Below are positions 2,159 to 55,813 of a DNA stretch of 64,000 bases, piece after piece. The position numbers and the translations under genes are program-made. Where the stretch lies: sequence record LR597660. One strand, 5' to 3'. Below the pieces are notes generated by a model, which was not told the DNA's origin, ran no database searches, and worked only from the letters and a program-made list of their open reading frames with translations. Every line of letters begins with the position of its first letter. Position 1 is the first letter of the stretch. The DNA is from Escherichia phage T4_ev151.

Positions 2159-3978
2159 TACTGGCTCATCCATTCTTTGCGAAGGTCAGCATTATCTCCC
2201 ATGAGCATTTCAAAAAGCTCTTTCCAGTTCTCAGGAAGTTTAACAACATCATATACTGGATTTTGAATCATCTCACGATATTCAGATTTTTCCAAAGAGC
2301 CAAGTCCTTTAATATAACGGATGCTATGTTTAGGTAGAGCATCTTTGGCACTCTCATATTCAGCGACTGTATAAAACCATTCTTGTTTTTTACCGACCTG
2401 AGCGATGATTACAGGAGTTTTGACAAAGCGAATTCGTCCTTGCTCAAACAGTTCTGGCCAATTACTAAAAAATCCAAGAAGAGAAGGATAAATGCTTCCT
2501 AGACCATCATGGTCAGCATCAGTCATAATAGCAATATTATGATAATTCAAGTTTTCAGCTTTTTCACCAAGAACTAATCCAGTGATTGCGCAAATATCAA
2601 ATAGTTCTTTATTTTTAAGCATATCAGCATATGACATACCCCAACTGTTGAGAACTTTACCACGCAATGGATAACCACCATGAAGTTCTTTATCACGAAC
2701 ATCAATAAGATATCCGATAGCAGAATCACCCTCAGTCAAGAAAAGAGTAGTATCAGCATCTTTACCGCAAAGATTCGCTTTGATATGTTTATGAACTTTA
2801 GCTTTAGAAGCCTTTTTAGCTGCTTTAGTTTCAGCTGCTTTTTCTGCTGCCAATTTACGAGCTAGTGCAGCTTCAATAATCGGCATTAAAATTGCTTCAT
2901 TATTTAGAATAGCGCGTGAAATCTTTTTAGCATCAAGCTGAATATGACTACGAATTTCACCAAATGGAGAAGTCAAACGCTCTTTAGTCTGAGAATCAAA
3001 TCGCATGTTTTTCATATCACGAACAAACATAACGATAGTCAAACATTCTTTAACACGTGCTTTAGTTACATCAATTTTGAACTTGCGCTTGATTTGTGGA
3101 ATAAGGTCTTCACAAATATCATCCATAACGCAGTCAATGTGATGGCCACCATTCTTAGTATGAATGTTATTGACGTATGTTAATTGACGAAAACCATCTG
3201 GTGAACGACCAACCGCAATAGAACAATTTTCTTGTTCTTGAACAATAGCATGCTCATCATATTGGCGTGCATATTTCTTAAAATTACCCTGAACCTTTTT
3301 ACCATTAAAGGTAAATTGAATATCAGGATAAACTACTGCAAGTGTCTGGAGACGATCTAGTGTAATGTCAAGATAAACTTGAGATAGCTCATTAGTTTCA
3401 AATGACATAAAATCAGGAATGAAAGTAACGCGAGTTCCTTTCCATTTTCCAGGAATAGTTTCCCAGGATTTATTTTCCATGCCATTTGAACAACGAACTA
3501 CAATATTATTTTGACCATCGCCAGTTTCACCGACAAACATCACAGAAAAAATGTTAGTTAAACTAGAACCAACACCATTCATACCACCGGTGACACGTTC
3601 TTTATCATCACCAAAGTTACCACCCGCTTTTGGAATAGTCCAAGCAGCAACTGGACCAGGAATTTCTTCACCGGTAGGTGTTTTAACCATCGCTTGTGGA
3701 ATACCACGACCGTTATCTTCAACTGTTACTTGATTGTTTTTGATAGTAACATTAATTTTATTTGCGAATTTAAACTTAGTACGAATACCTTCATCTACTG
3801 AGTTATCGATAATTTCATCAATAAGCTTAACAAGACCAGGTACATACTGAACACTTTCCCATTTACCAAACAGAAAGCGCTCATGCATTTCATTAGCAGA
3901 AGAGCCAATATACATGCCGCTACGCTTTTTGATATGTTCAATATCGCTCAGAATTTTAATTTCATTCTTAATCATCAC
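2158..3978 (-). CDS. 39: DNA topoisomerase II large (ATPase) subunit, uninterrupted 39+60 fusion
   Basis: 606 aa; GHKL motif IDNSVDEG; C-terminal third (IAIMTDADHDGLGSIYPSLLGFFSNWPELF...) is the segment encoded separately by gene 60 in T4; single continuous frame. Confidence 0.9.
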   Translation of the reverse strand: MMIKNEIKILSDIEHIKKRSGMYIGSSANEMHERFLFGKWESVQYVPGLVKLIDEIIDNSVDEGIRTKFKFANKINVTIKNNQVTVEDNGRGIPQAMVKTPTGEEIPGPVAAWTIPKAGGNFGDDKERVTGGMNGVGSSLTNIFSVMFVGETGDGQNNIVVRCSNGMENKSWETIPGKWKGTRVTFIPDFMSFETNELSQVYLDITLDRLQTLAVVYPDIQFTFNGKKVQGNFKKYARQYDEHAIVQEQENCSIAVGRSPDGFRQLTYVNNIHTKNGGHHIDCVMDDICEDLIPQIKRKFKIDVTKARVKECLTIVMFVRDMKNMRFDSQTKERLTSPFGEIRSHIQLDAKKISRAILNNEAILMPIIEAALARKLAAEKAAETKAAKKASKAKVHKHIKANLCGKDADTTLFLTEGDSAIGYLIDVRDKELHGGYPLRGKVLNSWGMSYADMLKNKELFDICAITGLVLGEKAENLNYHNIAIMTDADHDGLGSIYPSLLGFFSNWPELFEQGRIRFVKTPVIIAQVGKKQEWFYTVAEYESAKDALPKHSIRYIKGLGSLEKSEYREMIQNPVYDVVKLPENWKELFEMLMGDNADLRKEWMSQ

Positions 3979-49111: not shown

Positions 49112-49426
49112 CTAAAAGAAACTTCTTTCACAATTTTTTCCACTGAACCACGCGCTCACTGCTTTCTTAGTCTCAGGAGCAGTGTTATCCATAAACCATT
49201 CAAAGGCAGCCTTTTTATGATTCTGGAGGGCTTCTCGGGCTTTAATCTGCTCACGGTCTATTAACACTAACATATGAGCCTTTCTTGTCACCATGGGCTT
49301 CTTATGATTCTTGGAGTATTCCCAGTCATTTGTCCAACGCATTGTCGTTGCGAACTGATGAACCGCGTCTTTAATTTTAGTTTCGTAAATTTCACGAGCC
49401 TTTGAGTATAACATCATTACCTCCAT
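49112..49426 (-). CDS. hypothetical protein
   Basis: 104-aa ORF. Confidence 0.4.
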   Translation of the reverse strand: MEVMMLYSKAREIYETKIKDAVHQFATTMRWTNDWEYSKNHKKPMVTRKAHMLVLIDREQIKAREALQNHKKAAFEWFMDNTAPETKKAVSAWFSGKNCERSFF

Positions 49427-49496
49427 TTACCAGTTTAATTCTAGTCATCTTTTTGATGGCAGTCCATATAATCTATTTCTGAACTGCCTTTTTGTC

Positions 49497-50216
49497 TTAG
49501 GATTCTTCTAAATGTCTTTTCTGAAAAGTTGATACCATACTACGATACGGTTCATTTGGATACCCGTGTTTTATAGCTTCCTTTGTAAATTTTCTCCATC
49601 CATATTTAGTTTCTTTCCAAAGCTCGAATAATTCATCTTCATATTGCCATATAGTTAAATGAGAACGCTTTGCAGCTTTAATTCCATTAATATGCTTTTC
49701 TTTTACTACAGGATTGCTTAGTTTCTTTTTAATAATATTACTAACTTTTCTAACAAAAACTGGGTCCTTATATCGTTGCGAAGTTTTTATTGAAGTGTTT
49801 AATTTAGCTTCCGGCGTGGATGTGACCTCTTTCATCTTTTTCTTCATATGCTGTATATGATTAGGATTTTTCCATAAATTTATAGAATGCTTTTTGCATT
49901 TTATCCTAGTTTCATCTGCAACCTTTCCTCCTTCACCCCCGTATGACAGGTTAACACAGTTTTTTCCATATTTCAATTTACCTGCCATGATATATAATAT
50001 TTCAGCTTGTACCATTTTATCATAATTATCAAAAACTTCTAAAACCGTTTTTGATAATATGTGGTCATTTGACACTTTTACACGTTCTATATAATTTCCA
50101 CTACCAACATACGAATCATTGATGTTATTAGTTATATGTCGACCATAATAATATTTCTTAATACCTGTCTTTAAATTTAATATTTCAGTTTTATAGATAG
50201 TAAAATATTTTTTCAT
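49497..50216 (-). CDS. possible free-standing GIY-YIG-like homing endonuclease
   Basis: 239 aa; N-terminal TIY...YYYGRH...YVGSG; basic C-terminal repeats resembling DNA-binding modules. Confidence 0.4.
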   Translation of the reverse strand: MKKYFTIYKTEILNLKTGIKKYYYGRHITNNINDSYVGSGNYIERVKVSNDHILSKTVLEVFDNYDKMVQAEILYIMAGKLKYGKNCVNLSYGGEGGKVADETRIKCKKHSINLWKNPNHIQHMKKKMKEVTSTPEAKLNTSIKTSQRYKDPVFVRKVSNIIKKKLSNPVVKEKHINGIKAAKRSHLTIWQYEDELFELWKETKYGWRKFTKEAIKHGYPNEPYRSMVSTFQKRHLEES

Positions 50217-51193
50217 TTTAATAATACCGTTTCAGCGATTTCTTCCCAACCGTTTTTGTCGGTCATAATAAAGTCAGCAAGATAAAGAGCAGTACGCAGT
50301 GAAACATTACGTAAACGATTAACATTGACTTTCATCCATGATAATGCTTTATAAGTTTCTTCATCAGAAAGACCGCGCTTTTGCATCATGTCAGTTGAAA
50401 GAATAACATCTTCAACCCTGACCATAATTTCTTCATTAGTGTGAACACCCAAATCCAAATAAACTGAGCGGGACACTAATGCTTGTAAATGTGGAGCAAG
50501 TTTAGTACCACGGTCTAATTCGCGGTCAATGTCAACGTTTGTGATAAAAACAATCGTTCCTTTAAATTCAAACTCACGCTCAATGCCTTTTTCTTCTAAG
50601 TAAGAAGATGCGGTGCTCCAGCAGACTTTACGGGTCTCTCCAGTGTCCAGAGCAGCTTTCAGAAGATTAAGAATGTCCATATCAGAGAAAACATCCACAT
50701 CATCAATCAAAAGGACAGAATTCTCTTCACGATTATTCCAAAGCTGCTCATAAAGACCAATACCAGAGATTTTACCATTAATGCTTTTATACTCAATGTA
50801 TCCAATATCATTTGCTTTATTTAAAGCTTTATCTAAAGAATACGTTTTACCAATACCCGCCGCACCAGAGATAATTAATGAACGAATATTTCCGTTAATA
50901 ATACCGTTCGTCATCATTCCCATAACATTAAATCTTTTATTAATGCGGGTTTTCATATCTTCATATGATTCTTTAACTTCTTCAACTTTTACACCATCAT
51001 ATGAAATGTCTGATTTGTAAACCCAAACACCGCGACGCTTACCGTCAATTTCAACAAAAACTTTACCATCTCCTTGTGCATCTATCGGAGCATTATCTGG
51101 GAACCATTCGCCCAAGAGTTCAAAAGTTCCAGAGATTTCTTTACCGAAGTAGATACCCTTATTGATAGTTACAGTTTTCATTTTATTCTCCAA
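50213..51193 (-). CDS. AAA+/P-loop ATPase with ~100-aa N-terminal domain
   Basis: 326 aa; Walker A GAAGIGKT, Walker B VLLIDDVD. Confidence 0.6.
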   Translation of the reverse strand: MENKMKTVTINKGIYFGKEISGTFELLGEWFPDNAPIDAQGDGKVFVEIDGKRRGVWVYKSDISYDGVKVEEVKESYEDMKTRINKRFNVMGMMTNGIINGNIRSLIISGAAGIGKTYSLDKALNKANDIGYIEYKSINGKISGIGLYEQLWNNREENSVLLIDDVDVFSDMDILNLLKAALDTGETRKVCWSTASSYLEEKGIEREFEFKGTIVFITNVDIDRELDRGTKLAPHLQALVSRSVYLDLGVHTNEEIMVRVEDVILSTDMMQKRGLSDEETYKALSWMKVNVNRLRNVSLRTALYLADFIMTDKNGWEEIAETVLLK

Positions 51194-51274: not shown

Positions 51275-51297
51275 AGGAAGCCCGAAGGCTCCCTATC
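51275..51297 (-). terminator. rho-independent terminator (strand-specific)
   Basis: minus-strand RNA AGGGAGCCUUCGGGCUUCCU with G-U pair, followed by U6. Confidence 0.6.
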
Positions 51298-52309
51298 ATT
51301 TATAATAACTTCGGTGGTTTTCAAGATAGACCTTCTCAAGGAAGTCATCCCAGAAACTCATGTCTACTTTTTGCTGCATACCGTTCTTAGAAGCTTCAGT
51401 AGATGCTGCTTCTACTTGATCGACCACATCTTCCAAAAACTCTTGAACCGTTTTAAATGGATGTTTACCCAACTTCACGTCGAGAATAAATGGAGCATCT
51501 TGGAGTGGATAAACCAAGTCACCAGTTTTGTAAATTTCCAATAGTTGGAGTCCACCACGACAAGCATGACTCTGTGCTTTCCAGTCAATGCCCTCATTCG
51601 CTTCAGCCTTACGAGCGCGTTCACCGTATTCAGCATCTAATTTGTTCAGTGACTGCTTAAGCTCAATAAGAGAAAGCGTTGTCTGATATTTACGACCCAA
51701 CACTGTGTAAAACGTTTGTGGGCCTGTTTTCTCATGATTATGGAACACCCATTCACAGAATTCGTTTTCTGGAAGACGATGCTTAATATCTTCAACTTTA
51801 GTGCGACGCTGCTTAATAGAACCATCTTCTTGGTAATCAACCCATTGCTCGGGGATTTGATTAACTACTTTCAATACATCACGTAATGCAGCCAAACGAG
51901 AACCCTTGACACCGTATTTAGAAGCTTGCTTGCGGACATATCCTAAATAGGATTTCATGTTAGTCGTATAAAAACGAGAACGATTGTCTTGAATAAACTT
52001 CCACACATCAGGCAAATCAGATTTAACCACTAACTCAGGTGGAGTATGAAGCATATCTAATGCTACGGTTTCACCATCTGCTGCTAATTTAAAGAAATAC
52101 TTAAGACTGTATAGTTCATGGTCAATATCATCTTTAGTGTTTTTAGATGATGTGTTGTTGGTGTTTTTACTCATGTGCTCTTTGACGTTTCCGATAAGAA
52201 TATCGCGAGCAGGAGGAACAAAGATTTCTTTAAAATCTACATCAGATTCTGGGGTAGAAGTTCCATAAAGATGACTACCAAAATAGCTTTTCATTACTGT
52301 TTTCATCAT
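51296..52309 (-). CDS. Pol-beta-superfamily nucleotidyltransferase-domain protein
   Basis: 337 aa; N-terminal FGSHLYGTSTPESDVDF fits the GS-x(9-13)-DxD signature; ~230-aa helical C-terminal extension. Confidence 0.55.
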   Translation of the reverse strand: MMKTVMKSYFGSHLYGTSTPESDVDFKEIFVPPARDILIGNVKEHMSKNTNNTSSKNTKDDIDHELYSLKYFFKLAADGETVALDMLHTPPELVVKSDLPDVWKFIQDNRSRFYTTNMKSYLGYVRKQASKYGVKGSRLAALRDVLKVVNQIPEQWVDYQEDGSIKQRRTKVEDIKHRLPENEFCEWVFHNHEKTGPQTFYTVLGRKYQTTLSLIELKQSLNKLDAEYGERARKAEANEGIDWKAQSHACRGGLQLLEIYKTGDLVYPLQDAPFILDVKLGKHPFKTVQEFLEDVVDQVEAASTEASKNGMQQKVDMSFWDDFLEKVYLENHRSYYK

Positions 52310-52767
52310 TCAACCTTATATTCAATAACAGGACATACTTTAGCTTTACGAGCTTTTAAAAATTCAACAATAATCGATTTCTTGGGTTGAATAGGAGGTA
52401 AACCTTTATACGCCCTATCAATATTTTCTACGTGTAAAGCATAATCCTTTTTCCATTTATAATCTTTATATTTTTCACGCAAATGTGCAGGAATAACAAA
52501 TGAACCGATAATAAGTAAAACAACCAAAAGCGCAAGTATAAATGCCGATGGAAGAAGAGTCCATAAACTACCGAAAATAAGCCAACGTTGTAGGCTTTCT
52601 GCACAAATAATTGTTAGCCCTACGAGTATAGCACACCCAAAAATAGAAACGAAAAATGTAGGAATGGCAATAGACCAAAAATATGCGCATAGTGTCTTAG
52701 GTCGTTGCCATTCATCGTTAAACAATTTGAATAATTTATAGTGCCAAGAGTTTTCATTAATAATCAT
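52306..52767 (-). CDS. membrane protein
   Basis: 153 aa; 2-3 TM helices; ATGA overlap with nucleotidyltransferase gene. Confidence 0.5.
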   Translation of the reverse strand: MIINENSWHYKLFKLFNDEWQRPKTLCAYFWSIAIPTFFVSIFGCAILVGLTIICAESLQRWLIFGSLWTLLPSAFILALLVVLLIIGSFVIPAHLREKYKDYKWKKDYALHVENIDRAYKGLPPIQPKKSIIVEFLKARKAKVCPVIEYKVE

Positions 52768-55771: not shown

Positions 55772-55813
55772 ATATACCCCTTTAGTTAGATAAACCTATT
55801 TATAACTTTTGCA

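Follow-up and report, generated by a model that had tools for sequence, protein, structure and literature searches.

A Seg-like GIY-YIG endonuclease gene on a minimal, putatively mobile element at the 3′ end of nrdC.10 in a T-even phage

Within the 64,000-nucleotide stretch of Escherichia phage T4_ev151 analysed here (LR597660; hereafter, the window), it is very probable that an open reading frame coding for 239 amino acids is a free-standing GIY-YIG homing endonuclease of the Seg family, encoded on a selfish element of minimal size (approximately 733 bp) at the 3′ end of nrdC.10. We infer its cleavage activity, its exact target and its homing from the sequence. The gene is already known as a predicted seg-like gene and is biologically ordinary: it has been annotated as such since 2006 in the RB32 genome (RB32ORF093c), and a 2010 review of the T4 family (PMC2993671 Table 5) already included the Seg-like homing endonuclease genes (HEGs) of RB14, RB32 and T6 in its counts. 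In the literature on RB32ORF093c and nrdC.10, no characterisation, cleavage or homing data were found. What the present analysis adds is modest, namely the boundaries of the element, the recoded tail of nrdC.10, an insertion point that is conserved in another genus, and a target prediction. The locus is organised as follows:

49497 to 50216, minus strand: the free-standing seg-like homing endonuclease gene, with an ATG start and a TAA stop, taken from the ORF listing.
49501 to 50233, no strand assigned: the whole inserted segment, which replaces approximately 39 bp of the T4/T2-type empty nrdC.10/nrdC.9 junction, as delimited by pairwise alignment with T4.
50213 to 51193, minus strand: nrdC.10, the upstream host gene, coding for an AAA-type ATPase-like protein (weak Pfam AAA matches, PHROG 1250).
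49112 to 49426, minus strand: nrdC.9 (DUF7203), the downstream flanking gene (Pfam DUF7203, E 1.9e-15).

The window derives from a T-even (Tequatrovirus) genome, and the 2.8 kb around the ORF are 98% identical to RB14, RB32, RB51, T6, AR1 and many others. The endonuclease ORF is co-oriented with all its neighbouring genes, and its product is 100% identical in RB14, RB51 and RB68 (tblastn). On the upstream side, NrdC.10 is 99% identical to its T4 counterpart across residues 1-320, and the 3′ end of its gene is the insertion site and the probable target of the endonuclease. On the other side, the 70-bp spacer leading towards nrdC.9 (49427-49496) is 100% identical to T4 and common to insert-free genomes, and it belongs outside the element.

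In T4 and T2, the nrdC.10/nrdC.9 junction is uninterrupted, and the flanks of the two arrangements are approximately 100% identical at the junction. The earlier note on this DNA had proposed that a mobile insertion might lie behind a local difference in gene content from T4, and that the insertion site should be compared with genomes lacking the gene. The comparison bears this proposal out, as the replacement has clean junctions and as the site is empty in 435 of the 502 related records with the locus and occupied in approximately 66. The insert also has a GC content of 29-33%, versus 35-41% in its flanks. When six genomes with the HEG were compared with six without it, all fixed differences fell inside the replaced segment, and none was present in the flank of approximately 1 kb on each side. 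A co-conversion tract and immunity polymorphisms in the flanks were considered and rejected, given that nothing was fixed outside the junction in these genomes.

Other features of the surrounding locus deserve a brief description. The spacer contains a hairpin upstream of nrdC.9 (49458-49488, minus strand; 9-bp stem GGCAGUUCA...UGGACUGCC, z -3.3) that overlaps a sigma-70-like TGGACT-17-TAGAAT match; as the hairpin is 100% kept in T4, it is part of the host locus and not of the element. In the 5′ part of nrdC.9, positions 49300-49399 show 85-92% identity to all 11 compared T-even genomes, while the adjoining 100-bp bins show 96-100%. This divergent patch is unique to the window, looks the same against carriers and non-carriers and is unrelated to the presence of the HEG. 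Between nrdC.11 and nrdC.10, the sequence at 51275-51294 (minus strand) forms AGGGAGCC-TTCG-GGCTTCCT followed by a T-run, the sole terminator-like hairpin found in the region, which lies just upstream of a promoter-like TTTACA-17-TACTAT.

Carriers of the element, recognised at 95% identity or more, make up approximately 13% of the Tequatrovirus-type records, or about one in eight. Most of these copies are full length and at least 99% identical to one another, but some are truncated, split into two ORFs or frameshifted, as in AR1 (locus numbering 1419-1916), RB3 and G157lw. Such damaged copies are commonly seen when a homing element decays. As the copies are so alike, the fact that most are intact is of little use for judging selection for activity.

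Family membership was not apparent from direct searches. The whole protein gave no relevant match in Pfam (E ≤ 1), and three sub-fragments, including residues 1-99, gave no GIY-YIG, SegE_GIY-YIG or NUMOD3 match at E ≤ 10; the sub-fragment matches to CHDCT2, GerD, Rep_OBD and DUF4543 (E 0.03-0.09) were dismissed as noise caused by the lysine-rich helices. Similarly, no match was obtained with the protein in NCBIfam or with phmmer in the PDB, and Foldseek of the structural model against the PDB returned nothing significant. A word-indexed homologue search recovered two proteins only, and an exhaustive search of representatives was needed to reach the family. This HMMER scan of 1.84 billion representatives yielded 1419 relatives at E ≤ 1e-3, and the protein matched PHROG 314, “homing endonuclease”, over residues 1-238 (E 1.8e-30). 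Among 100 aligned relatives, 45 match PF19835 (SegE_GIY-YIG), 31 match PF01541 (GIY-YIG) and 33 match NUMOD3. Since the relatives match PF19835 or PF01541 and the protein itself does not, its membership rests on transitive homology and on fold. The profile check proposed in the earlier note thus had a divided outcome: the direct match was lacking in Pfam, even with the relaxed threshold, so that the note's own criterion for refutation, taken to the letter, would have ruled the idea out, but it was found among the relatives. Together with PHROG 314 and the match of the family profile to I-TevI (see below), the relatives uphold the assignment to GIY-YIG, Seg-type endonucleases that the note had suggested as possible.

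The lack of any direct Pfam, NCBIfam or PDB sequence match might also be expected of a chance ORF, that is, of a miscalled gene with a superficial GIY-YIG-like motif. This reading, to which we give practically no credence, is refuted by the PHROG match, the number of homologues and the confidence and GIY-YIG fold of the structural model; additionally, dozens of phages have an intact version of the ORF. The model was obtained with AlphaFold using the family alignment and reached a pLDDT of 95.5 (from the single sequence it was useless, with a pLDDT of 41.7). It shows the GIY-YIG fold, a three-stranded sheet flanked by helices, and Foldseek found 104 matches at E ≤ 1e-3 among viral models, mostly Seg-like HEGs. 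The first domain of the protein is the following:

49926 to 50216, minus strand: the N-terminal GIY-YIG catalytic domain, residues 1-97.

In this domain, a strand at residues 4-14 (containing Y8) and another at 20-29 (Y23, G25 and H27) are followed by a loop at 30-40 (D34, Y36 and G38-S-G), a helix at 41-48, a strand at 52-62 and a helix at 65-86 (E72), after which come N89 and G93-G94. In the alignment of approximately 100 family sequences, Y8, G25, Y36, G38, E72 and N89 are invariant, and Y23 (99/100), H27, T29, D34, S39, G40, G93 and G94 are conserved in at least 90%; the window protein retains every one of these residues. The best PDB match of the family profile is the catalytic domain of I-TevI (1LN0), with a weak E of 0.027, and in this alignment Y6, Y17 and G19 of I-TevI correspond to Y8, Y23 and G25, E75 to E72, and N90 to N89.

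The motifs quoted in the earlier note are all present (T6-I7-Y8, Y22-Y23-Y24-G25-R26-H27 and Y36-V37-G38-S39-G40), and their conservation in relatives rules out chance. However, the core that they form does not deserve the description “degenerate” that it was given there, as it is the normal version of the Seg clade, common to SegA, SegF and SegH. In fact, the signature Y23-Y-G25-R-H27...D34-S-Y36-V-G38-S39-G40 aligns column for column with these three proteins, the equivalents being ..YYGTHSTDDLNDGYMGSG in SegA, ..YIGAHSTDNINDGYMGSG in SegH and ..YAGKHES..NDKYPGSG in SegF.

With regard to the catalytic Arg and Glu, whose absence the earlier note would have taken as contrary evidence, the Glu is there, as the invariant E72, but no invariant Arg can be aligned with R27 of I-TevI. 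Positions 44 and 45 are basic in only 50-61% of relatives, and the stretch of I-TevI that bears R27 (helix 1) is unaligned or shortened in the family alignment. In place of the R27 helix, the clade apparently has a short conserved loop, H27...D34-x-Y36-x-G-S-G, which joins the YxG strand to the helix that follows. H27 is 97/100 conserved, with R (twice) and K (once) as the only substitutions, which suggests that H27 may supply a positive charge equivalent to that of I-TevI R27. SegA, SegF and SegH likewise show no alignable canonical Arg, and all three are reported to be active (for SegA and SegF, PMC2988022 Table 1). Consequently, the lack of an alignable Arg does not speak against activity of this protein in particular.

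These residues also bear on whether the gene is a defunct or decaying HEG that has kept the Seg fold and DNA binding, has lost cleavage and persists through recent arrival, in which case its product might act as a DNA-binding protein or repressor. The lack of a direct Pfam match and of an alignable canonical Arg could be read in this way, as could the departure of helix 41-48 from the family consensus (KVSND versus IKKYG in relatives) and the fact that several sister copies are already frameshifted; moreover, the copies are near-identical, which would leave too little time for decay to show. On the other hand, Y8, Y23, G25, H27, D34, Y36, G38, S39, G40, E72, N89, G93 and G94 are all retained, the same residues are kept in a 46%-identical orthologue from the Klebsiella phage Merci, and frameshifts affect AR1, RB3 and G157lw while most of the carrier records hold a full-length gene. 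We therefore regard decay as improbable, and an endonuclease of the Seg family remains our preferred reading.

The C-terminal half of the protein was described in the earlier note as basic and repetitive, with a resemblance to DNA-binding modules. The basic repeats are present, and the resemblance is seen in the family consensus. This half can be divided into two parts:

49647 to 49925, minus strand: a basic linker and predicted DNA-binding region, residues 98-190, with five NUMOD3-like repeats.
49497 to 49646, minus strand: a small C-terminal helical domain, residues 191-239, with conserved W200, G218, an aromatic residue at 219 (Y219) and F231.

The first part has a pI of 10.5, with 24 K+R versus 6 D+E, and is modelled as five tandem helices with a 17-residue period (101-116, 118-132, 135-150, 152-166 and 169-190). 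The repeat core xP(E)xxKxKxS begins at residues 100, 117, 134, 151 and 168, and the family columns show a NUMOD3-like consensus, s-x-E-t-K-k-K-i-S, at 100-108, 117-125, 134-142 and 168-177. The protein's own copies have diverged (ADETRIKCK, NPNHIQHMK, TPEAKLNTS, DPVFVRKVS and NPVVKEK.IN) and fall below the threshold for a direct Pfam NUMOD3 match, a match that 33 of the 100 aligned relatives give. The last 50 residues can be aligned to the C-terminal ends of both SegA and SegF, and the domain at 191-239 is a probable sequence-specific DNA-binding module.

A further likeness was found with T4 MobD, a free-standing HNH endonuclease at the neighbouring nrdC.11/mobD.1 site. Residues 130-231 (window 49521-49830) are 31% identical over 103 residues to its C-terminal part (E 1e-4 in a small database), the matching segment being:

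3472 to 3777, in T4 locus numbering: the segment of T4 mobD that matches the C-terminal part of the endonuclease.

Thus, a DNA-binding module appears to be common to a GIY-YIG protein and to MobD, whose catalytic domain is of the HNH type. NUMOD-type modules are known to be shared by GIY-YIG and HNH phage homing endonucleases, and the likeness to MobD fits this. The mobD gene itself is absent from the window, and a 153-residue membrane-like ORF (52306-52767) occupies its T4 position, in agreement with the RB32 annotation, “replaces mobD”. When T4 MobB, MobC, MobD, I-TevII, SegA, SegF and SegH were compared by tblastn with the 64-kb window, the ORF at 49497-50216 was the only match, so that this third of the genome lacks the many homing endonuclease genes of T4.

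The closest characterised counterparts of the protein are SegA and SegF of T4 and SegH of T4-related phages. All share the signature (I/V)Y...Y-x-G-x-H-x-T...D-x-Y-x-G-S-G...E...N-(L/I)-x-x-G-G-x-G-G, and they appear to have the same architecture, with a catalytic domain followed by basic NUMOD3-type helices and a small C-terminal domain. Like the window gene, theirs are free-standing between conserved genes, overlap the preceding gene at its 3′ end and have a patchy distribution (PMC2988022 Table 1). Nevertheless, the window protein forms a separate lineage, at 22-31% identity to the three (tblastn E 3e-10, 4e-7 and 6e-11, respectively, in a small database; for SegH, E 2e-6 against all phage records), and its only close relative, at 46%, is found in Klebsiella Jiaodaviruses. 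None of the T4 seg or mob genes that appear in Table 1 of PMC2988022 uses the nrdC.10/nrdC.9 site. In GenBank, copies of the window gene bear the labels “RB32ORF093c”, [quoted passage not shown] or, in a loose usage, “segE”; as T4 segE is located between inh and uvsW (PMC2988022), the “segE” labels on some copies are name transfers and do not reflect orthology. The resemblance to I-TevI (T4 td intron; PDB 1LN0/1MK0) is more distant, with approximately 18-21% identity. Both proteins join a modular catalytic domain to a flexible DNA-binding tail, but I-TevI is encoded in an intron, whereas the window gene is free-standing, and the segment that contains R27 and H31 in helix 1 of I-TevI is replaced in the window protein by a shorter loop, in which H27 is near-invariant and Y36 invariant. 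No zinc finger is evident in the window protein.

With regard to the target, the end of nrdC.10 is of note, as its last codons are provided by the element:

50213 to 50233, minus strand: the element-borne recoded nrdC.10 tail, GAA ACG GTA TTA TTA AAA TGA, which reads ETVLLK*.

The stop codon of this tail overlaps the start codon of the endonuclease gene as ATGA. In the T2-type empty allele, the tail is GAG GTT ACT CTT CTG AAA TAA (EVTLLK*), so that 10 of 21 nucleotides differ and the peptide is near-identical, while nearby nrdC.10 is 96-100% identical. The T4 allele of nrdC.10 has a frameshifted tail, TGYSSEINS*. Such a recoding with a near-identical peptide would be expected if the endonuclease had its site at this place and the element brought along a copy immune to it.

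A second genus shows the same arrangement. In Merci (Jiaodavirus), the homologue lies directly after the nrdC.10 orthologue (locus numbering 2501-3217), and the breakpoint follows the same nrdC.10 codons (…EIAEVT|). The insertion has its own replacement tail, EVTQLRG*, compared with EVTMLK* in JD18, a relative of Merci with an empty site. Of 181 matching records in total, approximately 140 are from close Klebsiella-phage relatives, only 7 of which carry the homologue. A terminator-like hairpin of the empty site is lost with the Merci insertion. As the same codons are interrupted in both genera, the 3′ end of nrdC.10 is likely to be the target of the lineage, and likely a conserved one, on the evidence of these sequence comparisons. 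More tentatively, and with less confidence than we would place in an even chance, the lineage may track the end of nrdC.10 (GAAATYGCTGARGTWACW..CTGAAATAA) in two genera with copies that are 46% identical, each with its own recoded tail as a portable immunity patch, and the whole Seg clade may perform GIY-YIG chemistry with a His two residues after YxG instead of the Arg of helix 1.

The signals for expression of the gene are scarce. The late promoter TATAAATA is not found within several kb, the nearest copies being at 55797 and 15075, and the sigma-70-like sites (16, versus 10.4 ± 3.6 in shuffled sequences) are not clearly enriched. No convincing Shine-Dalgarno sequence of the endonuclease gene was seen, and no significant hairpin covers its start codon (z -0.87). 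Given the ATGA overlap, expression of the endonuclease is probably low and coupled to the translation of nrdC.10.

If the gene is a Seg-family homing endonuclease, as we consider very probable, its behaviour may be predicted from the anatomy of the locus. In a mixed infection with a gene-free relative, the NUMOD3-like helices and the C-terminal domain would bind the uninterrupted nrdC.10/nrdC.9 junction, and the tethered N-terminal GIY-YIG domain would cut near it. Recombinational repair from the carrier genome would then copy the endonuclease gene and the recoded nrdC.10 tail into the recipient, a process of “intronless homing” accompanied by local marker exclusion. In the carrier, the site would be destroyed by the insert together with the altered final six codons of nrdC.10, so that its own genome would be protected.

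An active Seg-type nuclease might, however, mainly benefit the phage, either by excluding T-even competitors or by break-induced amplification of nearby genes, rather than propagate itself. For instance, SegB of T6 has been reported to amplify segments with anti-defence genes, among them gp49.2 of the neighbouring pin-nrdC.2 region (PMC13096335), and marker exclusion of T2 depends on Seg enzymes (PMC2993671; PMC1564403); the occupation of the same insertion site in two genera could also be understood in this manner. By contrast, the low occupancy of the site in both the Tequatrovirus-type phages and the Klebsiella-phage relatives argues against strong positive selection, as do the decayed copies, and the sequence holds nothing to tell such a benefit from plain selfish homing. 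Consequently, we see a predominant benefit to the phage as a minor prospect, and the selfish element remains the preferred explanation.

The finding leaves the general understanding of these elements unchanged. It accounts for one local difference in gene content between the phage of the window and T4 or T2, provides a target prediction for a Seg enzyme, flags some of the “segE” labels in GenBank as name transfers and would give the catalogue of the T-even phages one more case of intronless homing with clear limits.
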